This document shows positions 28,746 through 45,325 of a stretch of 64,000 nucleotides of DNA, one piece after another. The notes beneath the pieces are model-generated. The model was not told the DNA's origin. It did no database searches and saw only the letters and a program-made list of their open reading frames with translations. Numbering within the stretch: the first letter of the stretch is position 1; every line of letters begins with the position of its first letter. The DNA is from Ostreococcus lucimarinus (taxonomy: Eukaryota): assembly GCA_000092065.1 (NCBI GenBank), contig CP000585.1; one strand, given 5' to 3'. The translations under genes and the position numbers were made by a program.

Positions 28746-29102
28746 ATGAATAGCCGCGTGGCGAAGCAAACGCGCACGGCGAAGCGCGGCGCGCGCGTCG
28801 CGGCGCGCGCGTTCGATGACGTGAACGTCGTGATCTCGTCGGCGAACGCGATTTGCCTGGCGTTGGGACGATTCGTGTTTTTGCCGTACCAACGCGCGCA
28901 AGTCGAACGCGTGGGCGCGCCGACGCAAAACGGACAGACGCACTTCGCGGCGGGCGACTCGCGCGCGGAGGAGGCGTCCTTCATCGTGTCGACGAACGAT
29001 CCGGCTGGGTTCACGATCGTGGACCTGCTCGCGTGGGGGTCCATCGGGCACGCCGTCGGATTTCTCGCGCTCGCGTCCCAGTCGGCGCAAACGATGTTGT
29101 GA
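28746..29102 (+). CDS. PSAG: Photosystem I reaction centre subunit PsaG (PSI-G) precursor.
   Basis: ALGRFVFLPYQRAQVERVGAPTQNGQTHFAAGDSRAEEASFIVSTNDPAGFTIVDLLAWGSIGHAVGF matches PsaG (LAWGSIGH...), not PsaK. ATG at 28746 with a short basic presequence. A longer transit peptide in an upstream exon is possible. Confidence 0.8.
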   Translation: MNSRVAKQTRTAKRGARVAARAFDDVNVVISSANAICLALGRFVFLPYQRAQVERVGAPTQNGQTHFAAGDSRAEEASFIVSTNDPAGFTIVDLLAWGSIGHAVGFLALASQSAQTML

Positions 29103-29202
29103 GCGTCGCCGCCGCCTCTAGTGGGTTTGTGATCGTATGAAAGACCGAACATAAGTCAATAATTCAATCGCGCTACGCTAAGAATGCTACTTTCTATGTG
29201 AG

Positions 29203-31515
29203 CTACGTGTGAGGCGGGGGGCGAAGAAACTGCCGCGCGTGCGCGCTCAACTCGCCGGCGTTTTCGAAATCCGACGCCGAGACAAAGGCGTTGACGCGCT
29301 CGAGCTTGAGCAAACGCAACGCGTCGGCGTTCAAATCGAGATCGAAATCGTCGTGAAGTTTTGAAATCGTGCGCGTCAACGCGTCGACGTTTGCGAGATC
29401 GGTCTCGTAGGTCAAGTTCACGCACTCGCGCTGGTGCGCTCGCAAGACGCTCGCCGTCGCCTCGTACCATCGCTTGTCCTCTCGAATGAGATTTCTGAAC
29501 GTTTTCTCGATAAACTTCACCCGCACGTTCGCGGACGTGACGTTCGGATCGCGCGCGGTGATGTTTTCCGCGTCGAAAGGCTCGGCAGCCTCTCGAATCT
29601 GCTGGAACGGCGCGTCGCCGTTCACCGCACGCATCGACGACGCGTACATGTCGAGCTTGTTTTCGCGACTCAAGCACAACAGCACGGGGTCTTCCGTAGC
29701 GGCGTCCAAGATGGCGCTGAGAACATCTTCCGAATGTTTGCTCGTCTCGGGCGTTGAATGGATGTGCGCGCCGATGATGGATACGTACACCTTGTCCACG
29801 CCAGCCTCCCACGCTCGGCTCAATACTTCGTTGACGAACTCACCCGGATACGTCAGCGAGGCGTCAATCGTGGCATCCTTGACGCCGATGTCTTGCAAGT
29901 ACTTTCGGAGCTTTGAACGCCAAGACGTTTCGTCGTCTTTGTCGGGGAGTTCGTCCACCGACCACCAATCGCCAAGGGTGATGTAATTCGCAAAAAACGA
30001 ATCCGTTCGCACCTGGCCGTCTCGCTCCCACAACGTGGACGACGTCGGATGATTGGAAGACGTCGCAAGCGCTTCACCGAGAAGTGACGCGCCGCCGCGC
30101 AAAGGCGACGAAGCGAGCACGAGACGGGCTTTTTTATACACGCCCTCGGTTTCGTGCAATCGCACGCGCGTGACGAGCGAGCTCGTAGCCTCGGACGAGA
30201 GCACGCGAACGAAAGACAGCGCCCACTTGTGCACGAGATCTTCATCTGCCGGGATGTTCTTCTCGAGCCATTCCACCACCATGGCTTGTCGCTCTTGATT
30301 CGTGCACCCATCCTGCCAACTCGCGCCGTGAAACGAAAAGTGGTCGATAGCGTACGATTGCGGGTACGCGCTGGCGATCGACGTGCACGGAAGAGTCGTT
30401 TTCCAAAACGTCCCGTCCGCCTCCTCCACGAGCGCGTTTGAGAGCGACAACGGATTCCAATCATCGTTGCCAGATGTCACACGCCGCCACGTCTGCGTCA
30501 CGTACTTAGTGAACGACGATTTCGTACCATCTAAATCGCTCCCATCCACCGCCTTGCCGTTATTCATCATCCACCGCATGCCAGGATCGTTCTTGGCGTC
30601 TTCGTGCGTGACTTGCTTGACGCACGTATCGAACTCATTTTCGCCGCATCCGAGCGGGTACGCGACGTCGCGATCGAGCCTCAGTATCGTGTCTCTCAAA
30701 TCGTTCGCACGAATGATGTGCGACAACCACACAGGACCCGTGATCGCGTTCGCGATGCACCGCTTGCCGAAATCTATGTTTTGCAGGTATCCGTCCGAGG
30801 AGGTGTCGTTGAACAAACTTCGAAACACGCTCGCTCCGGGCGTGAGCGCGCCGAATATCCCAGCGCTAAAGAACCTCGAGTCCCCGGGGTCGGCCACCAT
30901 GAACACCTCCTTGTTCGCCCGCAACGTCTTATGAAACAACGGCGTGATGTCCTTGAACAACTCCACGTTCGTGTCCAAGTACAATCCGCCGTGACGAAAC
31001 AACACCTCGTACTTCATCAAATCCACCAACATCGAATACACGTTCGATCCCGTGAGTTGATGAAACGCCCGCCCGCGCTCGAGCGTCGCCAGCGTAATCG
31101 GAAAGTTCCTCTCATTAATGTCTCCCTCCGTCCACAGCCGCATCTCCCACCCAGCCGCCTCCAACACCCTTCGGTTGCGCTCGAAAATCATTCGCTTCAC
31201 CCCCGGCACCTCGCTCCCGAGCCAAATCTCGTGCGCCACGCGCACGAACGCCCCCGCGTCGCTCTGTTTCGCCAGCATCTCCTCCCTGGCCACCATCCCA
31301 CACACGCCCAGCGTCAGCATCGTCGCCACGACGATCGGATGCGTCGCCCACGTCGTCGTCGCGCGCAGCCAGCCGCGTCGTCGCTCGGGGTGTTGACGCG
31401 TCGTCGCGTCGCCGCGCTCGACGTCCGGCGCGTCATCGCGCGCGCGCGCGAGCAGCGCGAGCGACTCGTCGCCGCCGGCGATCGCCGCCGACCGCGCGCC
31501 GTCGCCGACGCCCAT
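29203..31515 (-). CDS. Large membrane-anchored glycosyltransferase with an N-terminal GT32-like (DXD sugar-binding) domain and an approximately 500-aa C-terminal extension of unknown function.
   Basis: TM anchor IVVATMLTLGVCGMVA. GT32 signature ...FHQLTGSNVYSMLVDLMKYEVLFRHGGLYLDTNVELFKDITPLF. The track start at 31611 is TTG. The first ATG is at 31515 (MGVGDGARS...). Confidence 0.65.
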   Translation of the reverse strand: MGVGDGARSAAIAGGDESLALLARARDDAPDVERGDATTRQHPERRRGWLRATTTWATHPIVVATMLTLGVCGMVAREEMLAKQSDAGAFVRVAHEIWLGSEVPGVKRMIFERNRRVLEAAGWEMRLWTEGDINERNFPITLATLERGRAFHQLTGSNVYSMLVDLMKYEVLFRHGGLYLDTNVELFKDITPLFHKTLRANKEVFMVADPGDSRFFSAGIFGALTPGASVFRSLFNDTSSDGYLQNIDFGKRCIANAITGPVWLSHIIRANDLRDTILRLDRDVAYPLGCGENEFDTCVKQVTHEDAKNDPGMRWMMNNGKAVDGSDLDGTKSSFTKYVTQTWRRVTSGNDDWNPLSLSNALVEEADGTFWKTTLPCTSIASAYPQSYAIDHFSFHGASWQDGCTNQERQAMVVEWLEKNIPADEDLVHKWALSFVRVLSSEATSSLVTRVRLHETEGVYKKARLVLASSPLRGGASLLGEALATSSNHPTSSTLWERDGQVRTDSFFANYITLGDWWSVDELPDKDDETSWRSKLRKYLQDIGVKDATIDASLTYPGEFVNEVLSRAWEAGVDKVYVSIIGAHIHSTPETSKHSEDVLSAILDAATEDPVLLCLSRENKLDMYASSMRAVNGDAPFQQIREAAEPFDAENITARDPNVTSANVRVKFIEKTFRNLIREDKRWYEATASVLRAHQRECVNLTYETDLANVDALTRTISKLHDDFDLDLNADALRLLKLERVNAFVSASDFENAGELSAHARQFLRPPPHT

Positions 31516-31825
31516 CGCCGCGTCGTCTGCCGTCCGCTCGCCGATGGTGTTACGCCGCGCGCGAACTTCGAGGTCGATACGAAACGCCGTCTTGGTTTGC
31601 GCACCATGCAAAAACGTCTCTTCGTCTTCCGAACGCGATCATCGCCCGCCGCGCGCCGCGCGCGCGGCGTCACACGCGCGCGCGCGACGACGCGATCGAT
31701 CGACGCGCGCGCGACGGACGCGCGCGGCGAACGCGCGCGCGGCGCGAGACGACGCGCGGCGCGACGTCGGGGACTCGAATTCGGACGGTTCGGTGAAAGC
31801 CGCGCGCGGCGAGGCGTCGGTGACG

Positions 31826-34800
31826 ATGGCGCGGGCGAGGCGTCGCGCGATCGTCGCGGTGCTGGCGTGGGCGTGCGCGAACGCGATCGCGGCGCGCGCG
31901 GAGGATCCCGGGACGCACTGCACGACGAACGCGAGCGATCTGGCGCCGTGCGCGAGCGGTGGGGGATCGGCGTGCTGCGCGGCGATTACGGAGTGGAACG
32001 CGAAGGGGTGCTTTTGCGACGGCGTGGCCACCGCGCTCGACGCCACGCAAAGCGCCGGGGCTGTTTCGTTCGCGAGCGCGTGTTCGGTGACAAGAACGAC
32101 GGCGAGCGGTGACGCGATCTGCGTGGCGGCGCTGGCGAACCAGGGTGGTTCTTCTTCTTCGTCGTCGGGATCTCCGCCCGCGACGCCGGCGCCGCCGGCG
32201 GGTCCCGCCGCGCCCACGGATGTGTACGCCCTTCGCACCGGTGCGAACGAGATCACGCTCGCGTGGTCCGCGAGCACGTCGAGCGATGTCGTGGCGTACG
32301 CGATCGATGCGTGCGATTCGGCGAATCTCGCGACGTGCGCTACGCCGACGCGAACCACCGTCGCGGCGTCCGCCGGGACGAGCAAAGTCTTCTCAGGGGT
32401 GTCCGCTCCGAACACCATGGTGTACCGCATCAAGTCTGCGACGCTGACGGAAGCGGGTGCGTCTTCGTCACCGACGGCGATTCCCGTGATCGACGCGCGC
32501 GATTCGATCCTCGTCTCAAACGACGCGTCGACGAGTTCTTCGTCGTCGAGTTGCGGCTCCTTCGCGACGCCGTGCGATTCCGTTGGATCGGCGCTCGCCG
32601 CGACGACATCCTCGCCGTCGACGCCGCGATCGATCTTGGTACTCCCTGGCACACACACATCTTCGTGCGGATCCACGCTCGGGTCTACGGGCGATGTCAC
32701 GGTCACCTCAGCGCTCGGGGCGTCTCGCACCGTTTTGGATTGCGGCGAAAACTCTCGAGGTTTCGAAATCTCCGGGTCAGACGCCATCGAAATCTCTGGT
32801 CTCACGGTAAAGAAAGGCCTCGCCACCACGGGTGGTGGATTTAAAATTACGAACGCCGATTCGGTGACGATTGACAGTGTCGACGTCGTCGAATGCAAAT
32901 CGCAAACCATGGGCGGCGGCTTGCACGCGATCAACTCCACGCCGACGATTCGACATTCTCGATTCATCGGCAACATCGGTGGGAACGATCGAAGCGGCAA
33001 CAACGTCCGTGGAGCCGGCGCGTACTTTCAGACGTCTTCGCACGCTTCGTTGCAAAACGTGAGCTTCATCGGAAACGAACTGATGGATAGTGGCAAGGGC
33101 GCCGGATTGAACGTCGACGAGAACTCAAACGTCACCGCCGTTGGATTAACGCTCAAGGACAACAAGGCTTTCTTCGCCGCCGGCCTCTTTGTCGGTAGTG
33201 GCTGTCATGGTAACTTTTCAAATATTGTCGCCACGGGCAACGAAGCGTCGTACGGGGCTGCTATCGGTGTCTTTGCCGGTGGTAGACCAAAGTTCAACGG
33301 CGGCACCGTGTCAAAGAATACCGCCACTCTCTGGGGCGCGGGCGTCATCGTGTACACCACCGCGTCCGCCGAATTCAACGGATTCAATTTCACAGAAAAT
33401 GAAGCCGAAATCGGCGGTGGTGTCTTCATGTACTCCCAAAGCTCGGCCAAGATGTATAACTCGCGCGTGTCTTCGAACGTCGTTTCCAAGCACGGCGCCG
33501 GGATTCGCGTCGAGGACCGCGCCGACCTCGCGTTGGTGAGCACCGAAGTTTCGCACAACGTCGCGAATCTCGGCGGTGGTGGCGCACACGTCACTACCGG
33601 CTCGCTACTTTCCGTGAGGGGTGGTAAGTTCGAGAACAACACCGCTCCGAACGGTGCCGCATTCATGTGCGAAGGCGGCGCTCACGGCGGAGGCGAAATC
33701 GTCGGCTCTGGCGTCAGCGTCAAATCCAACGTCGCTTCTGGTCTCGGCGGCGCTATGTATCTCGCAGGTGCGTGCGATGTTCAAGTTAAAGACGCATCTG
33801 AGATTGAATCCAACTCCGCTGTGAGTGGCTCGAGCTGCCGTTCGTTGTACGCCGTCGGTGGAGGCGCTTTTGCGCTCGTACCAAACACCGAGAACGCGCC
33901 GACGAAGCTCGCAATCGAAGGTTCAACGATCGTTCGCAGAAACACTGCGCCAACTGGTGGAGCGATTTTCGTCATTCCTGCATCGACTTCTGCCGATGTG
34001 AACTCTCCGCGGGGAGCGCAAATCACCGTGACATCATCGACGTTGTCTAACAACGAAGCCAACGGCTGCGGTTCAACCGTACCCGGTCGCGGTGGGGCAA
34101 TGTTTGTGGCTGCGGGCAACCACACGCTACTGCAAGCCTCACTCAGTGAAAACACGGCGGACAAAGATGGTGGAGCGGTGTTCATCGCGAGCTTCGGCGC
34201 GCTGACGATGGATTCTTGCACCACGAGCGACAACACAGTGTCTCGGTTCGGCGGCGCCGTGGCGCACGCTGGCGCCAAACTCAAAGTCACTGCCGGTGTG
34301 ATCGAATCCAACAACGCGGGCAGCGGTGGTGGCGTGTACATCGGTGCTGATAATACCTTGCCTATGTTTGCTCTGATTGGCACGTCGTTAAAGACGAACT
34401 CGGCGACTCGCGGTGGGGCAATGTATTTCGCCGCAAATCTCGCGCTCGGAATGCTGAGTCAGCTCTCCCTCGATCGCAACGTCGCGACAGCTGGGGCTGA
34501 TTCGTACTGGCTTCGCTCGTCGAGTGCGAACGCGGAGTTTACGTGTACTGGATGCGCTTACGCTCACGCCAGTGGCTCGAGTACCGGTGTCATCGCGACC
34601 GAGGCTCTCGCGCTGACGACCGCCAGAGCGATCGCTTCGCGAATTCAATCTGGAAAAGTCACGGACGATTACTCCGTTCAGCTCGTGGACTTCTACTCGA
34701 ACCCCGTGACGAGTGAGATCGCGCCGACAGAGTGTACGATTGCGCCCGTGACGAGCTCTTCTACGCTCGCGCGGCATGAACTCGAAATCAGTGGCTCGAC

Positions 34801-36496
34801 GTCTGCTGCAACGAGCGCCGGCGTTGCGACATTCAGCGGATCCATCTTGCGCGGTGAGCTGAACGAGGAGTACACCGCCAAAGTTACGTGCACGCGTGAC
34901 ACCACTATGTCGCTCACGGACATCACTCCGCTCTCGCTACCTGTTCGTATCGGCCTCTGTTCCCCAGGCTCTGAACCGCTCTTCGTGCAGCACGCCGACG
35001 GAGTCTCCGTCGCTCGTGAATGCACGGTCTGCAAAGATCGGACGTTCAACTTCGACGGCATTGCGTGCCGCGCGTGTCCTGAAGGTGGCGACTGTCGAGG
35101 TGGCACTTCTCTCGATGCCCTGCCCGGTTGGTGGCGTTCTTCCGATTCCGCCGAAGTTCTATTCTCATGCCCGATTCGCGAATCGTGCGTCGCCGGCAAC
35201 GTCACCGGCGCGAACGCGTGTGACGAAGGATACGAAGGTCCAGTGTGTGCGCTCTGCGCCGAAGGTTACCGGCACTGGGGTGGAAAATGCTCAAAGTGCG
35301 GCTCCAACGCCTCGTTGGCGATGCCCACGCTCGGAATCATGGCGTTTATTGCGTTTTTGGTGTACATCTTCCGCAAGCCTCTCAAGCAAGCCGTCGGCAC
35401 GGTTATCTTCGCCGCTCTGCTCTTCGTCGCGCAAATTGTGGGCTTGCTCAAAGAGTACGACATCTCTTGGCCTAAATCTATCGGTCGATTGGTTGAAGTG
35501 TTGGATATCACGAACTTCAACATGGAGTCCCTCACGCCCGGGTGCTCATCGAGCAAATCCAACTACTACTCGACGTACATCACCGCAGTCGTCGTGCCGC
35601 CCGCCGTCACGTTATTCTGTGTACTCGTGTACGTCCTCATGGGCGTCATTGAACGTCGCGCGCCTTTCTATCGCTTACGCGAAATGGCGTGCGATGTGAG
35701 AACGAAGTGCCGTCGCAATGCCACTTGGCTCGTCGTGCTTTCGTACTCGGGCGTCGCGAAGACGGTGTTGCAACTCTACAATCAGCGCCATCTCGATGTG
35801 GGCACGTACTTGAGACGGGACTACTCCATCGACGCCTCCAACACGGAGCACATGGTTTATCGCATCACCGGCTACGTCGCGCTGATCGTGTATCCGATCG
35901 GTATTCCGCTCGTCATCACGTACATTCTCGTGCGCAATCGCAAACGACTCGACGATCCCTCGGTGCAGGCCAACTTCGGATTCCTCTACAACACCGTTCG
36001 CGAAGAAGTCCCTTTCTGGGAACTCACCGGGCTATTCTTGAAGTTTATGCTCGCCGCGATTCCAGTGTTTGCGAACGAACGCCTGCTGCGCATGAAGGCC
36101 AGTGCGTTCGACACAACGAGCGACTTCAACGGCGCGACGCAACTCTCGCTCGCCCAGCTCTTCATCGGCGTCGTGTTCATCGCCACGATCTGCGTGCGAC
36201 CGTACAGAAAGACACTGCACAACGTGCAATTTTCCCTCGCGATCGGGATCGTATTTGCGTTCGTCACCCTCAGTGCGAACGTTTTCAACGCCGTGAACAC
36301 GTACACGGAGCGTGAAAAAACCGGCGTCGCCGGCGTCGCCGTGGCGCTCGCCGCGGGTGCCCTGTTTGCCTCCGTCGTCAACTCGTTCCGCGCGGGCGAG
36401 TTCAAGCCCGCCTCCAAGGGCGACGCCGGCAACGACAGCGACGACAGCGCCATGAGCGCCGGCGTCGACGTCACCAAGCTCAAGTCAACCGTTTAA
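31826..36496 (+). CDS. Giant (about 1556 aa) cell-surface protein with four parts: a signal peptide; a right-handed beta-helix region with Chlamydia-PMP-like GGA[IMV]/FxxN repeats; a Cys-rich GCC2_GCC3/ephrin-receptor-like module; and a C-terminal region with about 9 TM helices.
   Basis: Signal MARARRRAIVAVLAWACANAIAARA (ATG 31826). Repeats TGGAIFVIPAS, GGAMYLAG, GGAMFVAAGNHT, GGAVFIASFG, GGAMYFAANL, FENNTAP, FNGFNFTENEAE. Cys module CTVCKDRTFNFDGIACRACPEGGDCRGG...CDEGYEGPVCALCAEGYRHWGGKCSKCG. Then multiple hydrophobic helices (MAFIAFLVYIF, VIFAALLFVAQIVGLL, ...). Confidence 0.75.
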   Translation: MARARRRAIVAVLAWACANAIAARAEDPGTHCTTNASDLAPCASGGGSACCAAITEWNAKGCFCDGVATALDATQSAGAVSFASACSVTRTTASGDAICVAALANQGGSSSSSSGSPPATPAPPAGPAAPTDVYALRTGANEITLAWSASTSSDVVAYAIDACDSANLATCATPTRTTVAASAGTSKVFSGVSAPNTMVYRIKSATLTEAGASSSPTAIPVIDARDSILVSNDASTSSSSSSCGSFATPCDSVGSALAATTSSPSTPRSILVLPGTHTSSCGSTLGSTGDVTVTSALGASRTVLDCGENSRGFEISGSDAIEISGLTVKKGLATTGGGFKITNADSVTIDSVDVVECKSQTMGGGLHAINSTPTIRHSRFIGNIGGNDRSGNNVRGAGAYFQTSSHASLQNVSFIGNELMDSGKGAGLNVDENSNVTAVGLTLKDNKAFFAAGLFVGSGCHGNFSNIVATGNEASYGAAIGVFAGGRPKFNGGTVSKNTATLWGAGVIVYTTASAEFNGFNFTENEAEIGGGVFMYSQSSAKMYNSRVSSNVVSKHGAGIRVEDRADLALVSTEVSHNVANLGGGGAHVTTGSLLSVRGGKFENNTAPNGAAFMCEGGAHGGGEIVGSGVSVKSNVASGLGGAMYLAGACDVQVKDASEIESNSAVSGSSCRSLYAVGGGAFALVPNTENAPTKLAIEGSTIVRRNTAPTGGAIFVIPASTSADVNSPRGAQITVTSSTLSNNEANGCGSTVPGRGGAMFVAAGNHTLLQASLSENTADKDGGAVFIASFGALTMDSCTTSDNTVSRFGGAVAHAGAKLKVTAGVIESNNAGSGGGVYIGADNTLPMFALIGTSLKTNSATRGGAMYFAANLALGMLSQLSLDRNVATAGADSYWLRSSSANAEFTCTGCAYAHASGSSTGVIATEALALTTARAIASRIQSGKVTDDYSVQLVDFYSNPVTSEIAPTECTIAPVTSSSTLARHELEISGSTSAATSAGVATFSGSILRGELNEEYTAKVTCTRDTTMSLTDITPLSLPVRIGLCSPGSEPLFVQHADGVSVARECTVCKDRTFNFDGIACRACPEGGDCRGGTSLDALPGWWRSSDSAEVLFSCPIRESCVAGNVTGANACDEGYEGPVCALCAEGYRHWGGKCSKCGSNASLAMPTLGIMAFIAFLVYIFRKPLKQAVGTVIFAALLFVAQIVGLLKEYDISWPKSIGRLVEVLDITNFNMESLTPGCSSSKSNYYSTYITAVVVPPAVTLFCVLVYVLMGVIERRAPFYRLREMACDVRTKCRRNATWLVVLSYSGVAKTVLQLYNQRHLDVGTYLRRDYSIDASNTEHMVYRITGYVALIVYPIGIPLVITYILVRNRKRLDDPSVQANFGFLYNTVREEVPFWELTGLFLKFMLAAIPVFANERLLRMKASAFDTTSDFNGATQLSLAQLFIGVVFIATICVRPYRKTLHNVQFSLAIGIVFAFVTLSANVFNAVNTYTEREKTGVAGVAVALAAGALFASVVNSFRAGEFKPASKGDAGNDSDDSAMSAGVDVTKLKSTV

Positions 36497-36771
36497 TCGT
36501 CCGACGAAGCGCTCCTTTATCCTCGGAGCCGTCGTCGCGACGCCGCAGAGACGACGTCCCGCGTCGACGATCGTCGACGCCGCTCGCGCGACGCGCGCGC
36601 CGCGCCGCACCGCGCCCGCGATAAATTTACTTTCATCAATAAGCGCGCCCACGGCCGCATTTTACGCTGTAACACCGACGTCTCCGGTCACGTTTACGCC
36701 TCGCCGCGAAACCGCTCTGGAAAACGCTCCGCCGCGCGCCGGCGCCTCCGCAGATCCTCGCGCGCGCCGCC

Positions 36772-37194
36772 ATGGATCGCCTCATGCGCGACCTGCGCGA
36801 TCTAGACGACGACATACGGCAAAACGCGAGCGCGTCGGCGTCGCCGTCCTCGCCCGCGCGCGCGTCCGCGCGTCGTCGCGGCGCGTCGCCGTCGTCGTCG
36901 AGCGGGGTCAAGTCCAAGTCGGGGACGCCCGAGCCCACGAGCGCGCTCGCGCCGCGCACGCCCGCGCGCGACGCGACGTACGACGGACCGTGGTCGCCGG
37001 TCCCGTGCGCGACGCTGCGCGACGCGCGCTCGGCGCTGGAGACGGCGGCGCGGGAGCTGAGCGCGCTCGAGGCGACCGAGTTGGCGCGCGCGAACGCGAG
37101 CGGAGCGCTGCGAGCGCCGCGAGGGAAGAGCGTCGACGCGAGCGAGCGCGTCGCGGGGCGAACGGCGACGCGCGGCGCGGCGCTGGGACGGTAG
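36772..37194 (+). CDS. Hypothetical low-complexity protein (140 aa).
   Basis: ATG ORF MDRLMRDLRDLDDDIRQN...; Ser/Ala/Arg-rich; no family recognised. The region is extremely GC-rich with Arg-rich ORFs in every frame. Confidence 0.25.
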   Translation: MDRLMRDLRDLDDDIRQNASASASPSSPARASARRRGASPSSSSGVKSKSGTPEPTSALAPRTPARDATYDGPWSPVPCATLRDARSALETAARELSALEATELARANASGALRAPRGKSVDASERVAGRTATRGAALGR

Positions 37195-37329
37195 CGTCGC
37201 GCGCGCGCCATCATTTTTTGTCGCACCGACGACGGCTCGCCGCGGGGCTCGAGGCGTCGACGACTTGTAACGATACGATACCACACACACTCGCGCCTCG
37301 ACGCGCGCGGCTCGGCGGTCGACGTCGAC

Positions 37330-38118
37330 ATGGCGTCCGCGACGATGGCGTCGACCGCGTCGACGCGCGCGCGCGACGCGAGACCGCGGCGACGCGCGTC
37401 GGGACGGCGCGCGACGCGAGCTTCGGGACGCGAGCTGGCGCGAGCGTCCCGAGGCGAAAGCGACCCGGACGACGCGCGCGACGCGCCGGCGGTCGCGTCG
37501 ACGTCGCGTCGCGTCGCGTGCGCGGCGTTGCTGCTGGCGACGCGCGCCGGACGCGCGCGCGCGGCGACGGATGGATCTCGGGCGGCGCTGGAAGAGGTGC
37601 GCGCGGCGCGCGAGGACGTCGCGACGGCCAGAGCGGCGCTCGGCGACGTCGACGCGGACGCCGACGCGAGCGCGGACGCGCCGTCGGTGTCGAAGCCGTT
37701 GCCTTTGAAGGAAATCGCGGCCGCGCTGAACACGAGCGCGGTGAAGAATTTGGAGCGCAACGCCGTGGCGCTGGACGCCGTCGCGAAGGCGAGGCCGCTC
37801 GAGGACTGGGAACGCGAGGCGTGGCGAGGCGTGCGCGAGGATGAATGGTTGACGCAGAGTCAAACGACGACGCTTCCCATGGCAAAACGTCCGAATGACT
37901 TCTTGTGCTTCGTGTTCTCGTGCTACAACGATCCCAGGGCGCCGGCGAGCACGGAAGTTTTATTGACGATGCGCTTGGCCAAGGACGGCGTCGCGATGGG
38001 TCAACGGGGTGACAAGCGCATCACCGATCTCGGTCTCGCTGCGTCTCTGGATGACGTTTTAGAAAAATTAGACGCCTATTTGGCATTTGCGTCGAAATTC
38101 GTCGAAGCGGGCGAGTAG
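37330..38118 (+). CDS. Hypothetical protein with a transit-peptide-like N-terminus and a twin-arginine-like hydrophobic segment. It is possibly targeted to the thylakoid lumen.
   Basis: ATG at 37330. MASATMASTASTRARDARPRRR...SRRVACAALLLATRAGRARAA, followed by a more complex C-terminal half ...NDFLCFVFSCYNDPRAPASTEVLLTMRLAKDG...LDDVLEKLDAYLAFASKFVEAGE. Confidence 0.4.
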   Translation: MASATMASTASTRARDARPRRRASGRRATRASGRELARASRGESDPDDARDAPAVASTSRRVACAALLLATRAGRARAATDGSRAALEEVRAAREDVATARAALGDVDADADASADAPSVSKPLPLKEIAAALNTSAVKNLERNAVALDAVAKARPLEDWEREAWRGVREDEWLTQSQTTTLPMAKRPNDFLCFVFSCYNDPRAPASTEVLLTMRLAKDGVAMGQRGDKRITDLGLAASLDDVLEKLDAYLAFASKFVEAGE

Positions 38119-38250
38119 GATTGATGCGGGTCGATGGCGTCGCGTCGCCGACGCCGTCGCCGACGCCGACGCCGACGGTTAATATCACGAGACGCGCCTC
38201 TGTACGACACATCCACGCGCGCGAGCGCGCGCGATTTCGAACACACAGCG

Positions 38251-39681
38251 ATGTTTGAAGTTCTAAACGTTCCTCTCGCGTTCGCGTTCGCGTGCTTTCG
38301 TCCGAAACGAATGAGCAAACCGACGACGTCCCGCTCGCCGCGCCCCGCACACGCCGCCTCCGACCGGTCCTCCATGTCTCGCTCCATCGTCGTCGTCGGC
38401 GGTGGTAACGCCGCGGGCTATCTCGTCCGCGCGTTGGTGAGCGCCGATCCGACCCTGGGCGCGCGAACGCTCGTCATCGGTGCCGAGGACGTCGCGCCGT
38501 ACGAGCGTCCCGCGCTCACCAAAGGATTCCTGCACAAAGAAAGCCCGCCGCGTCTGCCCGGTTTCCACACCTGCGTCGGCGGCGGCGGCGAGCGACAAAC
38601 GCCAGAGTGGTACGAACAGCACGGGGTGGAACTGAGGCTGAACACGACGGTGACGGCGGCGGATTTCAAGAGCCGTACGGTGACGACGAGCGCGGGCGAG
38701 TCGATCGGCTACGAAACGTTGGTCCTCGCCACGGGATGCGGCGTCATTCGGCTTCCCGAAGCCATCGGGGGGACGTTACCGGGAGTTCACTACGTGCGGA
38801 ACAACGCCGATGGACTCGCGCTCGTGGAAGCGATGGACAAGGCGACGAAGGCGGTTGTCGTCGGCGGCGGGTACGTCGGTTTGGAAGTCGCGGCGTCGTG
38901 CGCCACGCGCGGATTGAAGCCGGAGGTGGTGATGATGGAGCCGCACGTCATGGCGAGGCTTTGGAACGCCGATATCGCGCAGCATTACGAGCGATTGTAC
39001 GAAACTCGGGGTACGACGTTTCACAGGTCGAGTAAGCTCAAGGCAATTTTGGCCGACGCCGACGGCAAGGCGCGCGGGATTGAATTAGAGTCTGGCGCGG
39101 TGATCGACGCCGATTTAGTCGTCGTGGGCGTCGGCGCGACCGCGCCCGTGCCTTTCACCGGACTGGACGCCCCCGAAGGACGCGTGGGTGGGATCAAGGT
39201 GGACTCGCGATTCCGCGCTTCTGGCGCGGACGTCGCGCCCGGTAGCGTGTACGCCATCGGCGACATCGCGGCGTTCCCACTCAAGCTCGCCGACAACGAG
39301 ATCGTCCGCATGGAACACGTCAAGCACGCGCGCGACAGCGCCACCTTGGTCGGTAACATCATCGCCGGCAAATCCGACGACGAGTACGATTACACGCCCT
39401 TCTTTTACAGTCGCGTCTTCGAGCATCCCGGCACCGAGCGCGCCGTCAACTGGGTCTTCCACGGCTTACAGCGCGGTGAAATCATCACCATAGGCAATCT
39501 CGACCCCACGCTCGCCGCGTTCTGGATTGACGACGGCAAGTGCGTCGGCATCATGCTCGAATCCGGCGCCCCCGAGCGCGTCGCCGCGCTCGCCGCCGCT
39601 GTTCGCGCCCGCAAATCCGTCGACGTCTCCGCGCTCCGCGCGTGCGCTTCCGTCGACGACGCCCTCGCGTTGGTCCTTTAA
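38251..39681 (+). CDS. MDAR: Monodehydroascorbate reductase (MDAR/MDHAR), probably organelle-targeted.
   Basis: SIVVVGGGNAAGYLVRALV...YERPALTKGFL...GGGYVGLEVAA...AIGDIAAFP; class-I pyridine nucleotide-disulfide oxidoreductase of the MDAR type. The track ORF starts at 38134 with poly-Arg. ATG candidates are 38251 (MFEVL...) and 38311 (MSKPTTS...). Confidence 0.85.
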   Translation: MFEVLNVPLAFAFACFRPKRMSKPTTSRSPRPAHAASDRSSMSRSIVVVGGGNAAGYLVRALVSADPTLGARTLVIGAEDVAPYERPALTKGFLHKESPPRLPGFHTCVGGGGERQTPEWYEQHGVELRLNTTVTAADFKSRTVTTSAGESIGYETLVLATGCGVIRLPEAIGGTLPGVHYVRNNADGLALVEAMDKATKAVVVGGGYVGLEVAASCATRGLKPEVVMMEPHVMARLWNADIAQHYERLYETRGTTFHRSSKLKAILADADGKARGIELESGAVIDADLVVVGVGATAPVPFTGLDAPEGRVGGIKVDSRFRASGADVAPGSVYAIGDIAAFPLKLADNEIVRMEHVKHARDSATLVGNIIAGKSDDEYDYTPFFYSRVFEHPGTERAVNWVFHGLQRGEIITIGNLDPTLAAFWIDDGKCVGIMLESGAPERVAALAAAVRARKSVDVSALRACASVDDALALVL

Positions 39682-39885
39682 TCTTCCCTTCTTTACTCGT
39701 CCCGCTTTCAATTTTATCCCACTTTCATTCGTTTAAATTCGTTCAGACGCCGCGGCGACGTCGTCGGCGTCAGAGCCACGTCACCAGTCGCTTCGCGCGG
39801 ATAACTTTGCCTCAGACACCACCGCGCGCGCGACGACGCGCCGTCGTTCGCGCCGCGCGTGGACGTCGAACGACGCGCGGCGACG

Positions 39886-41580
39886 ATGCGCGCCAATGTC
39901 GTGGGGTGCGAGCGTCCAGCGGCGCGCGCGCGCGTCGCGACGGCGCCGCGAACGTCGCCGCGTCCCTCGCCGCGGTCGTTCGTCGCGACGGTTTCGCGAC
40001 GCGTGACGCTCGGTGCGACGACGAAATCGCGCGTTGAGAGCGCGGAAGCGCGCGCATGCGTCGCGCGCGGCGCGTGGTGCGCGCGACGCGCGGCAGGAGC
40101 GATGGAGATGGCGGGAGACGCGAGCGAAGGCGCGGCGAGAGGGGACGCGGGCGCGGCGTGGCTGAGCGAGGACGCGACGCCGCGGAACGACGCGCTGGAT
40201 AAGCTCATCATCAGTCTGTTCGTGCCGGCGATGCTAAACTTTTTGATAATCCCGCTCGTGGGCGCGGTGGATGTGTTTTGGGTCGGGCGATTGGAGGACG
40301 CGGTGGCGCTCGCGGCGCAGGGGGCGGCGAATCAGGTGTTTCAGAGCGCGTTTTGGATCATTTCCTTCATTCCGAGCGTCGTCGCGCCCGTGGTGGCGAA
40401 AGCGGCGGCGGGAGGTGATACGAACGAATTGTCGAAAAAGATTGGGGAGGGGATCTTCTGCGCCGCCGTGGTGGGGGCGATGGGGATGGTGTTGATGTAT
40501 ACGATGCAAGAGCGCGCGTTGGGCATCGTCGGCGTCGCCGCGGGGAGCGTGACGGCGCATCAAGCGGCGCCTTACGTTGGGTATCGCGCGCTGACGTTCA
40601 TTCCAGCGATCGTTTCCACGGTTGGTTTCGCCGCATTTCGTGGGACGCTTGACGTGATGACACCGATGAAGATTACGTTGGCGAGTCAAATGTTAAACGT
40701 CGTCCTCGACCCGCTCTTCATCTTCGGCGTCGGCACGTTCAAGGCGATGGGGGTCGCTGGCGCCGCAATCGCGACGTCGATTTCAGAGATTTTCTCTGCG
40801 GGTTTGTACACTACGTTACTCGTCAAGCGCAAGCTGGTCGATCTTAAGGATATGTTTAGGCCTCCGAGCGCGGCGGCGTTGGGGACGCTTCTCGTCGGCG
40901 GCGCCGGCGTGCAGCTTCGAGCAGTGGCGCAAAATATCACGTTCTTGGCAGTGATGCGCGCCATACTTACGATGGACTCCACCGGTACGGCGGCTGCGGC
41001 GCACACGATCTCGTCGCAGGTGTTTCAGCTCGGTGTTATCGCTATTTTGGCGTTGAGCACCATCGCCACCATTTTGATCCCCCAGCGCATGAACTCGATG
41101 GAAAAAGGTGGACCTCGCGAAGCCAAGCGCGTGGCCGATCGTTTGCTCGTATGGGGCGTTGTTATCGGTGTCATCTTGGCCGTCTTACAAGCGGGCGCGA
41201 TTCCGTTCCTCGGCGTCTTCTCCTCCTTGTCTGAAGTTCAAGAACAGGCCAAGATGCCCTGCATCATCGGCGCGTTGCTGCAGCCGCTCAACGGCATCGT
41301 TTTCGTCGGAGAGGGCTTGATGCAAGGCCATCAAGCTTTCCTTCGTCTTGCCGCGGGCATGTTCGTCTCCACGGGTGCCATGCTCGTCGCATTGAACATA
41401 TACGGCAACTCCCTCGCCGGCGTGTGGTTTTGCTTCACCGTATTCAACACGTTTAGATTGTTCTTCGGCTTGCGTCATCACTTCTTCGACGGCCCGCTCG
41501 CGCCGCGTCACATCGACGCCACGATCGCCAAGCTCGAAGTGGAGACCGCAGCCAAGGCTGCGGCCGCCAAGACGGATTAA
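39886..41580 (+). CDS. MATE (multidrug and toxic compound extrusion, DinF-like) transporter with a presequence.
   Basis: 12 predicted TM helices and the MATE duplication. The track start at 39859 is GTG. The first ATG is at 39886 (MRANVVGCERPAARARVATAPRTSPRPS..., transit-peptide-like). Confidence 0.8.
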   Translation: MRANVVGCERPAARARVATAPRTSPRPSPRSFVATVSRRVTLGATTKSRVESAEARACVARGAWCARRAAGAMEMAGDASEGAARGDAGAAWLSEDATPRNDALDKLIISLFVPAMLNFLIIPLVGAVDVFWVGRLEDAVALAAQGAANQVFQSAFWIISFIPSVVAPVVAKAAAGGDTNELSKKIGEGIFCAAVVGAMGMVLMYTMQERALGIVGVAAGSVTAHQAAPYVGYRALTFIPAIVSTVGFAAFRGTLDVMTPMKITLASQMLNVVLDPLFIFGVGTFKAMGVAGAAIATSISEIFSAGLYTTLLVKRKLVDLKDMFRPPSAAALGTLLVGGAGVQLRAVAQNITFLAVMRAILTMDSTGTAAAAHTISSQVFQLGVIAILALSTIATILIPQRMNSMEKGGPREAKRVADRLLVWGVVIGVILAVLQAGAIPFLGVFSSLSEVQEQAKMPCIIGALLQPLNGIVFVGEGLMQGHQAFLRLAAGMFVSTGAMLVALNIYGNSLAGVWFCFTVFNTFRLFFGLRHHFFDGPLAPRHIDATIAKLEVETAAKAAAAKTD

Positions 41581-41678
41581 TATCGTCATCGCTAGATTGA
41601 GTAGTTCGCTGTGTAGTTTCTATTTCTAATCCACGTTTTGTCACGCGCCAGAACCTCGCGCGGCACGCGCGCGCCGTC

Positions 41679-42373
41679 ATGGGGCTTCTCAGCATCATAA
41701 AAAAAGTACGCTCGGCGTCGCCCGCGCGCGCGTTTCGTCTCTCGCCTCGCGCGCGCGTCGCTCGCGACGCCGAACCGTCGAGTCGAGTTCGTTGTTCGTT
41801 GACCCGCGCTGACGCTGACTTCGTCCCCGCGCTCGCGAAACGCAGGTCAAGGCCAAGGAGCGCGAGCTCCGCGTCCTCATGGTCGGCCTCGATAACGCCG
41901 GGAAGACGACGATCGTGAAACGAGTGAACGGGGAACCGATCGATGAAATCTCCCCGACGCTCGGGTTCAACATCAAGACGATGACGTTCGGCGCGTACTC
42001 GTTGAACATCTGGGACGTAGGCGGACAGAAAACGCTGCGGTCGTATTGGAAAAACTATTACGAAGCGACGGATGCACTGATTTGGGTCGTGGACAGCGCG
42101 GACGGGCGACGGATGCGAGACTGCGCTCGCGAACTCGCGGGCGTGCTCGGCGAGGAGAAGCTCGCGGGGGCGAGCGTTTTGATTTTCGCGAATAAGCGCG
42201 ATATTCAAGGCGCCATGGACGTGGATGCTATGGTGGATGCGTTAGGGTTGAAGACGCTGGTGAATCGGCACTGGAACATCGTCGCGTGCTCGGCGGTGAC
42301 CGGCGAAGGGTTACTCGAGGGGTTCGACTGGCTCGTGAAAGACTGCGCGGATAGGATTTACATGTTCGATTAG
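41679..42373 (+). CDS. ARL2: ADP-ribosylation factor-like protein 2 (ARL2) with two exons: 41679..41705 and 41846..42373.
   Basis: Exon 1 MGLLSIIKK, then an intron GTACGC...CGCAG, then exon 2 [46 protein letters not shown]...[17 protein letters not shown]...FANKRDI.... This is co-linear with human ARL2 ([31 protein letters not shown]...). Confidence 0.85.
41706..41845 (+). other. Spliceosomal intron of ARL2 (140 nt).
   Basis: GTACGCTCGG...GCTGACGCTGACTTCG...CGCAG; phase 0. Confidence 0.8.
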
Positions 42374-42565
42374 CGGAGTTGGCGCGGCCATCGCGCGTCG
42401 CCAATATAGTCATAGATCGCTGTACAACAACCACATTCTTTCGGCACTCATCGCGCCGCGCGATGGCGAGAAGAATCGAAACCGCGGCGCGCCGAGCGCG
42501 ACAGCTCTCTCGCGTTTGAATCTCCCCGACCTCACAAATCCGCGCACGATCGCGCGCGCGCCGCG

Positions 42566-43141
42566 ATGCCGCCTAAAACCCCCAAAACCGTCCTCGACAA
42601 GGTTTTGCACGCCATCGAGACCCTGCAAACGCCCGGCGGATCGTCGCGCCAAGCCATCGCGAAATATCTCAAGGAACACTTCGACGCCGATAACGCTCCC
42701 GCACTCAAGCGCGCGCTCGCCAAGGGCGTCGCCGACGGCAAGCTCGAACAGAGCGGGCAATCTTTCTCGATTCCTGGCCTCGAATTCGACGCGCCCGAGG
42801 ACGAAAAGGTGAAGATTGAAGTCTTGGACGAGGGACGGTACGCGAGCGAGTCGGGACGGTGCGAGCGAGGCGACCAAGTGATGGTGGACTACGTCGGCAC
42901 GCTCGCGGCCACGGGCGAGGAGTTCGATCGCTCGGACGGACCGTTTCGGTTTAATCTCGGGTACGGCGAGGTGATCAAGGGATGGGAAGAGGGAGTGATC
43001 GGAATGCGGTGCGACGAGACGAGACGGTTGACGATTACGCCAAAGTTGGCGTACGGGAAACGAGGGAGTCCACCGGAAATCCCGCCGGACGCGACGTTGG
43101 TGTTCGAGGTGACGATGTTGCGGTTCGAGCCGGTGGGATGA
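42566..43141 (+). CDS. Fusion protein: linker-histone H1/H5 globular (H15 winged-helix) domain plus an FKBP-type peptidyl-prolyl cis-trans isomerase domain.
   Basis: N-terminus KTVLDKVLHAIETLQTPGGSSRQAIAKYLKEHFDADNAPALKRALAKGVADGKLEQSGQSFSIPG is the H15 signature. C-terminus GDQVMVDYVGTLAATGEEFDRSDGPFRFNLGYGEVIKGWEEGVIGMRCDETRRLTITPKLAYGKRGSPPEIPPDATLVFEVTMLRF is the FKBP_C domain. ATG at 42566. Confidence 0.8.
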   Translation: MPPKTPKTVLDKVLHAIETLQTPGGSSRQAIAKYLKEHFDADNAPALKRALAKGVADGKLEQSGQSFSIPGLEFDAPEDEKVKIEVLDEGRYASESGRCERGDQVMVDYVGTLAATGEEFDRSDGPFRFNLGYGEVIKGWEEGVIGMRCDETRRLTITPKLAYGKRGSPPEIPPDATLVFEVTMLRFEPVG

Positions 43142-43210
43142 GCGCGCGGTCGTCGGGGGTTCGATTACTCGAGGGTCGGCGTCGACGGGCGCGTCAGACG
43201 ACGCCTCGAC

Positions 43211-44293
43211 ATGCGCGCGGCGGCGACGGCTCGACCATCGACGGCTCGACCGTCGACGTCCGCGAGACGCGCGCGGCGAGCGCGAACGCGCGCCGTGCGT
43301 GATGAACGAATCGACTTCCTCTCCACGACGCTCATCGTCGACGACCTGGTGTTCGCGGACGGGACGACGCGGATGGCGGTGCTCGGCGGCGGTGGGCCGC
43401 AGACGCTGTTCGGCGCTGCGGTGACGTCCGACGGTGAGCTCACGCTCGGTCTCGTCGCGGGCGTGGGCGAGGGCGATTGCCCGGAGACGTGCGCGAGGTG
43501 GCTCGCGGACATTGGCGCGGAAGCGTTTTTGTTGACGTTGGGGACGTCGACGCCGCGGGCGTGGCAAATCACCGAACGCGACGGACGTCGCACGCAGGTG
43601 TGGAGATTGGACGCAAGCGATGCTTTGTACGCGATGTTGCGTCCGAAATACGCGATTTGGCCAGAGAAGTGTAAGCGTGCGAACGCGGTGCACTTTGGCT
43701 TGAATCCGTCGCGACCAGACGTCGAGCTCGTGCAAGCGCTTCGCGAAGGCGGGTGCGGCTTGATTTCGATCGAACCGTTCACGCACGCCGAGGCACCGCT
43801 ATCGAGGAAAGATTTGGAAAATCTCGTTTCCATGGGTGATGTTTTCTCGCCGAATGAGCGCGAGGCGAGGAGTTTCTTTGCGAAGGGCGACGGGATGTCG
43901 CCGAAGGATTTGATCAAAGCCATGCGAAAAGCTGGGGCGACGATATGTTGTTTGCGGCGCGGGTCGCGCGGTGCGATGGTGTATGATTCGCGAACGAACG
44001 AGGGTTACGAGTGCGAGGCGCTCTCTGCGAATGTCGTAGACGAAACTGGATGCGGCAACGCGTTTTGCGGCGCTTTCGCCGCCGCCTTGGCGCAGGGCGC
44101 CACGATACGCGACGGTCTTATCCGTGGAACGGTTGCGGCGAGCATCATGCTCGAACACGTTGGCGTCCCAAACGGCACATTGGTCGAGTATCGCGCCGAA
44201 GCAGCGAGGCGTGCGAACTTGATCAATCCCGTTGCGTTTAGTCTCGACGAAGAGGTTGCCGCGTTCGTCGACTTCGACGAGTACATCCCCTAG
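43211..44293 (+). CDS. PfkB-family carbohydrate/nucleoside kinase (ribokinase-like).
   Basis: C-terminal PfkB signature DETGCGNAFCGAFAAAL, with an upstream ...GGGGPQ... di-Gly region. ATG at 43211. Confidence 0.75.
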   Translation: MRAAATARPSTARPSTSARRARRARTRAVRDERIDFLSTTLIVDDLVFADGTTRMAVLGGGGPQTLFGAAVTSDGELTLGLVAGVGEGDCPETCARWLADIGAEAFLLTLGTSTPRAWQITERDGRRTQVWRLDASDALYAMLRPKYAIWPEKCKRANAVHFGLNPSRPDVELVQALREGGCGLISIEPFTHAEAPLSRKDLENLVSMGDVFSPNEREARSFFAKGDGMSPKDLIKAMRKAGATICCLRRGSRGAMVYDSRTNEGYECEALSANVVDETGCGNAFCGAFAAALAQGATIRDGLIRGTVAASIMLEHVGVPNGTLVEYRAEAARRANLINPVAFSLDEEVAAFVDFDEYIP

Positions 44294-44333
44294 TTTAGCT
44301 CTAGATGTTCAGATTAAAGTTATGCAACGCGTT

Positions 44334-45325
44334 TTATTTACACTCCTCCTCCTCGTCTTCTGGGTCACCTCCGGCGTGATAGAACGGACTCGTCGTCAAC
44401 TTGCGGCGAGTGTCGACGACGACGAGCGGGCGGCACTCGCAGTTCTGCGGCCACGCGTGCATGTGTTCGCGCATATTTTCGCTCGGCACGTGTCCACCGA
44501 AGCAGTACTCCACCATTAGATTGCACATGAACGCCGAGTGTGTGACGACTATGATTGAATCTTCCTCGCGATCGAAACACCAGTCGAGAAACTTTCGCGC
44601 TCGCGCTCGCAGCACCGGTTCGGGCTCGCGATTCTCTCGGCCCGGCTTCCACAACACGTCGTCCTCGTCCTCGATGAACGAAAAGTCAACCCCAGGAAAC
44701 TCTCGTCGATATTCGCTGACGCTGCGCCGTCTATCGCACGGATTCCCGCCTATTTGCTCGCGCACCATTTCGAGCGCGACGAATTTCTTCCCCCCGCGCA
44801 ACCGCGCGTCGCACCTCAACGCCGGTCGTTCGCACGCCTTCATCGCCTCCGCCCTCGTCGCCTCCATCAGCACGCACCCATCGCCGTCGACCGATCCGAA
44901 CATCCCCGCCGCCGTCTCCATCGCTCGCGTCAACGGCGACACCACCACCAGTTCGCACGTCTCCAACATTTTCCCGTACGCGTCGCGCGACTCGAGCGTC
45001 TCTTTAAAATGTTCGCACTGTCGCCATCCTCGCGCCGTGAGTCTCGCGTCCGCGTACGCCTCGCTCCCGTACTCCTTCGGGTCTCGCTCGCCCGCTGCGC
45101 TCCCGGCGCTCGACGCGCGCCGTCAGTCGTTTTCCTTCGGCTTTCGTCACCGACCGTCTCTGATTTCAATCTTCTCGCGCGTCGCGTCCGTCGCGTCGCG
45201 CGCGTCGCACCTCGATTGTGAAACCCCTCGGCGTGTCGTATGAGATAGATCGTCTTCGTCGCGCCCGCCGGCGCGCAGTGCACGTCGCGCGCGTCCGCGC
45301 TCGGCGGATGGCGCACCCAGCCCAT
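44334..45325 (-). CDS. Phosphoglycerate-mutase-like histidine phosphatase (plant PGM-like protein 1 family) with two exons: 45211..45325 and 44334..45094.
   Basis: Exon 1 MGWVRHPPSADARDVHCAPAGATKTIYLIRHAEGFHNR carries the RHG catalytic motif, with donor CGAG|GTGCGACG in phase 1. After CGCAG, exon 2 continues (A)GERDPKEYGSEAYADARLTARGWRQ...LVVVSPLTRAMETA...NPCDRRRSVSEYRREFPGVDFSFIEDEDDVLWKP...IIVVTHSAF. Plant PGM-like 1 reads HNVEGEKNHDAYLS...LTPLGWKQ...ITSPLLRTMQTA...HPCDKRRSVTEYKALFP. Confidence 0.8.
45095..45210 (-). other. Spliceosomal intron of the PGM-like gene (116 nt).
   Basis: GTGCGACGCGCGCGACGCGACGG...GACTGACGGCGCG...GCGCAG; phase 1. Splicing joins the RHG exon to the downstream ORF in frame. 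Confidence 0.75.

Follow-up and report, generated by a model that had tools for sequence, protein, structure and literature searches.

What kind of protein is encoded by the long gene at positions 31826-36496 of a 64,000-nucleotide stretch of the Ostreococcus lucimarinus genome (contig CP000585.1; hereafter, the window), and can such dissimilar parts truly belong to one product? A first-pass annotation, made from the DNA letters alone, had described a single polypeptide in which a signal peptide and a large beta-helical ectodomain are followed by a Cys module and about nine transmembrane (TM) helices, and this architecture is borne out by the open reading frame (ORF), the structural model and the hydropathy analyses. 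The region 31826-36496 is one real gene and no fusion artefact. Our sequence comparisons also indicate that its C-terminal unit, formed by the Cys module and the nine TM helices, is of the CRMP type and homologous to the CRMPs of apicomplexan parasites, and that the window protein belongs, as a divergent member, to a eukaryote-wide CRMP-like family.

One continuous gene with conserved layout and gene order

The complete coding sequence (31826..36496, + strand; 1556 amino acids plus the stop) was defined from the list of ORFs, the translation and the N-terminus of P0001, a metagenomic protein 100% identical to that of the window. It lies in a stop-free ORF (31544..36496, + strand) that occupies 4.9 kb in one frame. 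Two start codons come into question: ATG 31826, chosen in the first-pass annotation, and ATG 31793, which is 11 codons further upstream and is the start in the ENA gene call for P0001. The 94 codons 5' of ATG 31826 encode an Arg/Ala-rich string that is not common to the orthologues, and the start is therefore either 31826 or 31793. A metagenome contig is 99.76% identical to positions 28901-44495 of the window. The window as a whole has a GC content of ca. 0.62, and around this gene it carries what one would expect of the nucleus of a photosynthetic eukaryote, namely genes for Mg-chelatase H, a PPR protein, Aquarius helicase, MDHAR, MatE and a DNA methyltransferase together with a PsaK exon, a setting that fits a mamiellophyte green alga.

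The layout of the protein is identical in its close relatives (n = 11, 66–72% identity), eight of which are full-length (1564–1662 amino acids) and three truncated at the N-terminus. We also compared gene order among loci L002-L007, using as partners the following genes of the window:

28830-29096, + strand, gene-order partner
29203-31611, - strand, gene-order partner
38134-39681, + strand, gene-order partner
39859-41580, + strand, gene-order partner

A locus of GC content 0.60 from a related picoalga keeps PsaK, the glycosyltransferase gene (minus strand), the CRMP-like gene, MDHAR, MatE and Arf. PsaK is still immediately upstream of a more distant orthologue, with 40% identity in the C-terminal unit, from a Bathycoccus-like locus of GC content 0.45.

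Beyond green algae, the ciliate Blepharisma stoltei contains a protein of 1520 amino acids (P0012) that is colinear with amino acids 930-1415 of the window protein, from the beta-sandwich through TM6 (25% identity, E 8e-38), and that also aligns, more weakly, along the beta-helix. P0012 carries Chlam_PMP (31 bits) and DUF7630, both above the Pfam thresholds. The existence of a ciliate homologue with the same layout indicates that the fusion of the beta-helix to the C-terminal unit is ancient. Moreover, the junction itself, formed by the beta-sandwich and the Cys module, is conserved and continuous with TM1, as in CRMPs.

The first-pass annotation had considered that an intron or a frameshift might join two genes here, in which case a secreted beta-helix gene and a polytopic membrane gene would have been read through as one ORF. 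This is contradicted by the single frame without stops over 4.9 kb, by the colinear layout in the close orthologues, the Bathycoccus-like loci and the ciliate, by the shared gene order and by the conserved junction. We found nothing in favour of such an artefact, which is effectively refuted and to which we assign a vanishingly small probability.

Homology of the C-terminal unit to CRMPs

The C-terminal unit of the window protein (amino acids 925-1556) and the tail that closes it comprise the following features:

34601..34948, + strand, membrane-proximal beta-sandwich, amino acids 926-1041, first part of the conserved C-terminal unit
34958..35299, + strand, Cys-rich module, amino acids 1045-1158, with 14 Cys, all of them at least 99% conserved in the family
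35162-35299, + strand, DUF7630-like segment, amino acids 1113-1158, the last 46 amino acids of the Cys module, corresponding to the CRMP juxtamembrane domain
35318..36376, + strand, predicted nine-helix TM domain of the CRMP type, amino acids 1165-1517, from hydropathy, hhalign, BLASTP and the family hidden Markov model (HMM)
36377..36493, + strand, acidic tail, amino acids 1518-1556 (39 amino acids), ending in -STV, on the cytoplasmic side as deduced from the topology

We compared this unit with the TM-region sequences of TgCRMPA/B and PbCRMP1-4 available in S2 Table of Singer et al. 2023 (PMC9815656). Using an alignment of seven sequences as the query, hhalign matched the TM region of TgCRMPA with a probability of 99.3% (E 4.6e-20) over 331 columns, from the last Cys motif to TM7, and the window protein alone aligned with TgCRMPA by BLASTP (E 6e-11). 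An HMM constructed from 118 family sequences scored 204 bits against TgCRMPA (E 1.6e-58 for a nominal database of 1e6 sequences) over HMM positions 191-603, which correspond to DUF7630 plus all nine helices. The same HMM scored 182 bits with PbCRMP1, 172 with PbCRMP2, 75.5 with TgCRMPB and 43 with PbCRMP4; the window family is thus nearer to the A clade (172–204 bits) than to the B clade (43–75 bits). Common motifs are also evident by eye, as in YPIGIPLVITYILVRNRKRLDDPSVQANFGFLYNTVREEVPFWELTGLFLKF of the window protein and WSIGIPLSCFLVLYVNRKTLNSRETRLKYGFLHNGFVKKYWYWEMVVFARKF of TgCRMPA.

DUF7630 (PF24633) was the only Pfam family that appeared with the window protein, with 23.4–26.3 bits versus a cut-off of 27; it scores 64–66 bits in TgCRMPA and PbCRMP1/2, and 36.2 bits in the family consensus. 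Every Cys of the segment is conserved in the window protein, hhalign aligns it to CRMPA, and its juxtamembrane position is equal in the window protein and in TgCRMPA, PbCRMP1 and PbCRMP2. The Cys module had been described before as GCC2_GCC3-like; a Cys-rich module is indeed present, but the Pfam label (GCC2_GCC3/Ephrin_rec_like, PF07699) found no match at E ≤ 10 even when the module was scanned alone. PF07699 reached 15.7 bits, versus a cut-off of 23.1, with the family consensus, and 5 of 32 family members match it at E ≤ 0.01. The module belongs to the same broad class of TNFR/furin/ephrin-receptor-like Cys-rich domains.

Nine TM peaks appear in the hydropathy averaged over the alignment of 118 family sequences (amino acids 1165-83, 1193-1211, 1251-69, 1295-1313, 1350-68, 1400-18, 1435-53, 1472-90 and 1499-1517), eight of which pass the cut-off in the single protein, with TM4 falling below. 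Characteristic motifs of the domain are a conserved GIP within TM5, an FGFLY...WE that runs from the TM5-TM6 loop into the start of TM6, and an RPY after TM7. The ectodomain contains 10 N-x-S/T sequons and 38 Cys, which supports an outside location of the N-terminal part, and with nine TM helices the tail is therefore predicted to be cytoplasmic. The distribution of Lys plus Arg in the loops (16 in 83 inside residues versus 12 in 99 outside) fits this topology, with the N-terminus out and the C-terminus in (N-out/C-in), and is not decisive. Profile searches of the PDB with the C-terminal unit and with the TM domain retrieved only noise (E ≥ 0.2).

The window protein retains 43 of the 65 positions that are conserved in at least 85% of the family, including all Cys of the module, C1240, Q1203, W1398-E1399, K1406, Q1439 and P1459. 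In the beta-sandwich, whose strands are predicted at low confidence (predicted local distance difference test score, pLDDT, ca. 50–60), G943, D955, G990 and G999 are conserved in 96–100% of the 118 family sequences. As a separate observation, Cys 1320 (35783-35785) and Cys 1337 (35834-35836) of the TM4-TM5 loop, 93% conserved in the family, are replaced by Q and A in the window protein and in its green-algal orthologues; from the alignment, this joint replacement looks as if a disulfide had been lost in a coordinated way.

Conservation in the tail is otherwise low, and we observed an S-x-V C-terminus (STV, SVV, ESV, DSV) in 6 of 11 Micromonas-type proteins (the window protein and 10 relatives), namely the window protein (36485-36493), P0002, P0006, P0007, P0008 and P0009. 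Such an end could serve as a ligand of the PDZ type or, through its C-terminal valine, as a signal for export from the endoplasmic reticulum.

A large family of proteins with uninformative names

We searched a profile of the C-terminal unit against 1.84 billion cluster representatives (50% identity), retrieving 20,754 matches at E ≤ 1e-3, 9,018 at E ≤ 1e-10 and 1,078 at E ≤ 1e-30, figures in which ciliates are inflated because the profile included the Blepharisma sequence. The matches nearly always span the whole C-terminal unit, which is located at the C-terminal end of proteins of ca. 600–3,150 amino acids, with a median N-terminal extension of 1,038 amino acids. An HMM of the window beta-helix matches 70 of the 118 best representatives with an N-terminal extension of at least 300 amino acids; the combination of a beta-helix with the C-terminal unit is therefore a common architecture. 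The former view of the protein as belonging to no standard family has thus to be abandoned, given the homology of its C-terminal unit to the apicomplexan CRMPs and the number of representatives retrieved.

The names attached to the relatives are uninformative, such as 'DUF7630 domain-containing', 'LNR domain-containing' or 'predicted outer membrane repeat protein', and a scan of the window protein against NCBIfam gave no matches. For the nine-TM domain of the CRMP type, the only Pfam model matching in our scans was PF06011 ('TRP'), with a subset of the proteins above threshold. Our searches of the literature on DUF7630, on eukaryotic PMP-like proteins and on CRMP homologues in algae yielded no description of this architecture. 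In all, neither the beta-helix branch, nor its occurrence in green algae, nor the size of the family was found in any paper in our literature searches, and the databases list only the uninformative names. Published work presents CRMPs as restricted to apicomplexans or alveolates, with one exception: Singer et al. mention homologues in Dictyostelium, proteins in which they noted structurally similar nine-TM domains (PMC9815656).

A modular ectodomain built around a beta-helix

N-terminal to the C-terminal unit we distinguished the following features:

31826..31900, + strand, signal-peptide-like N-terminus, amino acids 1-25, an Arg-rich stretch followed by hydrophobic AIVAVLAWACANAIAARA
31904..32143, + strand, 8-Cys helical domain, amino acids 27-106, with the pattern C..C..CC..CxC..C..C
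32213..32500, + strand, FN3-like beta-sandwich, amino acids 130-225, from Foldseek and the model
32573..34495, + strand, right-handed parallel beta-helix, amino acids ca. 250-890, with ca. 20 rungs of ca. 27 amino acids each and [FILV]xxNxA and GG[AG] motifs

The doubt raised in the first-pass annotation, that the repeats might not model as a beta-helix, is dispelled: they were modelled as a right-handed beta-helix with pLDDT mostly of 85–97, and the best structural matches include the bacterial adhesins and autotransporter passengers Vag8, pertactin, EtpA, UpaB and PfbA. The helix had been estimated at about 1100 amino acids; it does exist, but its length is ca. 640. The description of the repeats as PMP-like holds for the fold and not for the Pfam label, since Chlam_PMP (PF02415) had no match in the window protein at E ≤ 1. 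The similarity is also weak at the motif level, with 7 occurrences of GGA[IMVFLA] and 7 of FxxN. Within the family, Chlam_PMP scored 16.8 bits in the orthologue P0005, versus a cut-off of 20.6, and the distant member P0199 is a bona fide Chlam_PMP protein (85.7 bits, 9 repeats).

The earlier account of the ectodomain was also incomplete, as it missed the 8-Cys helical domain, the FN3-like domain and the membrane-proximal beta-sandwich. Judged by eye from the sequence, the N-terminus MARARRRAIVAVLAWACANAIAARA is shaped like a signal peptide, and the orthologues present a variable basic and hydrophobic leader followed by a conserved GTHCxTN. The Cys of the 8-Cys domain (positions 32, 42, 50, 51, 62, 64, 86 and 99) are all invariant among orthologues, and the domain was modelled as five helices with pLDDT of ca. 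73–84. The FN3-like domain was matched by Foldseek to FN3 domains and monobodies with a probability of 1.0, on a model of pLDDT 50–65, and Pfam fn3 matched below threshold (E 0.015).

The spacing of the eight Cys is the classic one of plant non-specific lipid-transfer proteins and 2S albumins, and the domain is predicted to be all-helical. PF00234 (lipid-transfer/seed-storage proteins) matched it below the cut-off (E 0.009–0.011), and five of eight orthologues match at E ≤ 1; a profile search of the PDB with this domain returned only noise (E ≥ 0.2). The domain might possibly adopt a lipid-transfer-like fold, a lead rather than a finding. If true, a lipid-binding module on a CRMP-like receptor, as yet unproven, would parallel the lipid-binding ectodomain of fungal Pkd2.

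Comparison with known systems

As in CRMPs, the window protein presents a large, modular, Cys-containing ectodomain and a predicted N-out/C-in topology, with a juxtamembrane Cys domain, similar to DUF7630 at a sub-threshold Pfam score, directly before the homologous nine-TM domain. The ectodomains differ, with EGF, Kringle, MAR and multiple Cys repeats in CRMPs and a PMP-type beta-helix, an FN3-like and an 8-Cys domain in the window protein; instead of multiple Cys repeats of the EGF, Kringle or GCC2_GCC3 types, the latter holds a single module of 14 Cys.

The window protein shares with chlamydial PMPs and with the passengers of type V autotransporters (Vag8, pertactin) the right-handed, three-faced beta-helix and the GG[AG] and [F/I/L/V]xxN rung motifs. 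Unlike these, it has no C-terminal beta-barrel translocator, and its anchor is an alpha-helical bundle of nine TM helices in a eukaryotic membrane. We ruled out a bacterial-type autotransporter because of the nine hydrophobic alpha-helical segments found in place of a beta-barrel.

A very large, modular and adhesive ectodomain fused to a polytopic signalling domain is also found in adhesion G-protein-coupled receptors (GPCRs) and in polycystin-1-type receptors, an analogy already used for CRMPs by Sparvoli et al. The window protein differs in having nine helices, not 7 or 11. Pfam gave no match to 7tm or PKD-channel families at E ≤ 10 and detected no GAIN/GPS motif. A GPCR was rejected on the basis of the nine helices and the lack of a 7tm Pfam match at E ≤ 10.

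A putative contact-sensing receptor

When TgCRMPa or TgCRMPb is depleted, rhoptry discharge and invasion are blocked, with microneme secretion and the secretion apparatus left intact, and Tetrahymena knockouts of CRMP1/2 fail in mucocyst discharge with normal rosettes; a contact-sensing role in signalling, with the N-terminus outside, has been proposed for CRMPs (PMC9670195). In addition, the nine-TM domains of CRMPA/B are predicted to heterodimerise (PMC9815656). By analogy, we consider it reasonably probable that the gene product is a type-I-like surface glycoprotein of N-out/C-in topology, a divergent CRMP-like member that would act as a ligand- or contact-sensing receptor. The proposal of a receptor or channel-coupled surface protein, made in the first-pass annotation, agrees with the CRMP homology and continues to be a reading from homology and architecture.

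How such a receptor might work can be outlined as follows. The beta-helix and the accessory domains would bind an external ligand or surface, with glycans, other cells, particles and viruses as candidates. The binding event, or a force that it transmits, would then pass through the Cys module, presumably rigid and sitting directly on TM1, into the nine-TM domain. This domain, probably dimeric like the one predicted for CRMPA/B, would relay the signal to the cell interior, possibly through the passage of ions.

Several observations weigh against this proposal. Mamiellophytes are not known to possess rhoptry- or mucocyst-like organelles, and the function of the alveolate proteins is therefore not simply transferable. 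The studied members of the family are alveolate CRMPs only, none of which bears a beta-helix. CRMPs act as A/B heterodimers, and tblastn identified no paralogue or B-clade partner within the 64-kb window. Several polar TM residues conserved in the family (K1196, N1200, R1405, E1469 and N1509) are lost in the window protein, as is the Cys pair 1320/1337 of the extracellular loop, and with these changes the ancestral activity may have been lost or altered. To this can be added the ciliate bias of the family search and the poor AlphaFold2 model of the C-terminal unit, obtained from an alignment of seven sequences, whose mean pLDDT of 41 is too low to define the fold of the TM domain.

Could the protein be a passive adhesin or surface coat, in which the beta-helix attaches and the nine-TM domain is a mere anchor or trafficking module, with no signalling? 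The matches of the helix to Vag8, pertactin, EtpA, UpaB and PfbA are in line with this idea, as are the short, poorly conserved cytoplasmic tail and the loss of polar TM residues relative to the family. However, among close orthologues the highest identity is found in the Cys module (82%), followed by the TM domain (76%), the ectodomain (60–66%) and the tail (24%). The Cys module and the TM domain are thus more constrained than the ectodomain, suggesting for the membrane unit a role beyond anchoring; both have also been kept from ciliates and apicomplexans to green algae, a conservation that exceeds the needs of an anchor. Likewise, the loss of CRMPs results in a defect in discharge or signalling and not merely in adhesion (PMC9670195). 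Overall, we judge a purely adhesive role to be improbable. An even more improbable reading, to which we give very little credit, is that the beta-helix is a membrane-tethered carbohydrate-active enzyme, i.e. a lyase, epimerase or glycosidase acting on an extracellular polysaccharide. The helix does resemble such enzymes, but with 6–19% identity the similarity is the generic one among beta-helices; furthermore, no enzyme family matched in Pfam at E ≤ 1, we identified no catalytic constellation, and the GG[AG] and NxA rung motifs are of the PMP/adhesin type.

Possible relationship to Pkd2/Flc channels

A further possibility overlaps with the contact-sensing receptor, transduction being the one step in which the two readings part. 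The nine-TM domain might be a Ca-permeable channel of the Pkd2/Flc type (PF06011, 'TRP'), gated by stretch or by a tether, with the rigid ectodomain serving as the force tether. In S. pombe, the PF06011 member Pkd2 is described as starting with a signal peptide and an Ig-like ectodomain, followed by nine TM helices and a disordered tail (bioRxiv 10.1101/2022.08.11.503631), and it passes calcium under membrane stretch in vesicles (PMC9727806). Pkd2/Flc/TrpR proteins and the window protein share a plan in which a signal peptide and a beta-sandwich ectodomain precede nine TM helices and a cytoplasmic tail that is short or disordered; the N-out, nine-TM, C-in topology behind a beta-sandwich found here is a resemblance and no proof of homology. 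They differ in that the window protein contains no TRP_N/ML-like domain and the fungal proteins contain neither the Cys module nor the beta-helix.

PF06011 matched above its cut-off of 28.5 in two relatives, P0024 (31.1 bits) and P0201 (30.2 bits), which match the profile of the C-terminal unit with E 3e-38 and that of the TM domain with E 1.4e-34, respectively. Sub-threshold matches were obtained with P0199 (25.9 bits), P0050 (24.4 bits) and P0025 (21.3 bits), and with P0158 and P0169 (E ca. 0.01). The consensus of 118 sequences also matched (E 0.0098), with consensus positions 252-605 aligned to positions 156-412 of the 426 in the model, covering the whole TM domain, and all the PF06011 alignments were colinear. 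Conversely, PF06011 had no match at E ≤ 10 with the TM domain of the window protein, TgCRMPA or TgCRMPB, nor at E ≤ 1 with PbCRMP1 and PbCRMP2, and the members matching at E ≤ 0.01 were 6 of 32 in the largest scan, to which smaller scans added a few. Composition alone can produce weak similarity between TM domains, and the window protein no longer has several of the conserved polar TM residues. Two further homologue searches returned few, mostly unnamed proteins and did not reach the fungal members of PF06011; the link between CRMPs and PF06011 therefore derives solely from the hmmscan matches.

Taken together, a remote homology between the CRMP-type nine-TM domain and PF06011 is plausible, perhaps slightly favoured by these matches, and suggested rather than demonstrated. 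That the window protein itself works as a stretch- or tether-gated channel seems to us unlikely, though worth bearing in mind. We hold as equally tentative the generalisation that CRMP-like proteins across eukaryotes might be contact- or force-gated, Ca-permeable channels, remotely homologous to Pkd2/Flc, with the algal beta-helix as a gating tether. If true, it would provide a testable mechanism leading from host contact to rhoptry exocytosis, and would define an ancient eukaryotic superfamily of 'adhesin-gated channels'.

Other observations in the window

The CRMP-like gene adjoins a divergently oriented gene for a DXD glycosyltransferase of 802 amino acids; the two could be functionally linked, for instance through glycosylation of the ectodomain. 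Elsewhere in the window, an ORF of 820 amino acids (52354-54816, - strand) encodes a C-5 cytosine DNA methyltransferase domain alongside chromatin-reader domains of the PWWP and Tudor types. An ATG-initiated ORF of 504 amino acids (21572-23086, + strand) has no Pfam match at E ≤ 1e-4. The GC content is 0.72 at 4001-6000, whereas it is 0.54–0.57 at 6001-10000, in the Aquarius helicase region, with a GC skew of +0.145 at 6001-8000.

Implications

CRMPs, which Toxoplasma and Plasmodium require for invasion, have been regarded as confined to apicomplexans or alveolates. The unit formed by the Cys module and the nine TM helices is also present in free-living green picoplankton, in a syntenic gene whose ectodomain is similar to bacterial adhesins. 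As judged by sequence homology, this would place CRMPs in a broad eukaryotic family of receptors, with more than 20,000 sequence clusters and interchangeable ectodomains, and would offer simpler, non-parasitic systems in which to study the transduction domain; Ostreococcus is genetically tractable. Confirmation of the link with Pkd2/Flc would, in turn, suggest a channel mechanism. For the alga itself, the gene provides a candidate surface sensor or adhesin of a highly abundant eukaryotic phytoplankter, which could matter for contacts between cells, with particles and with viruses.

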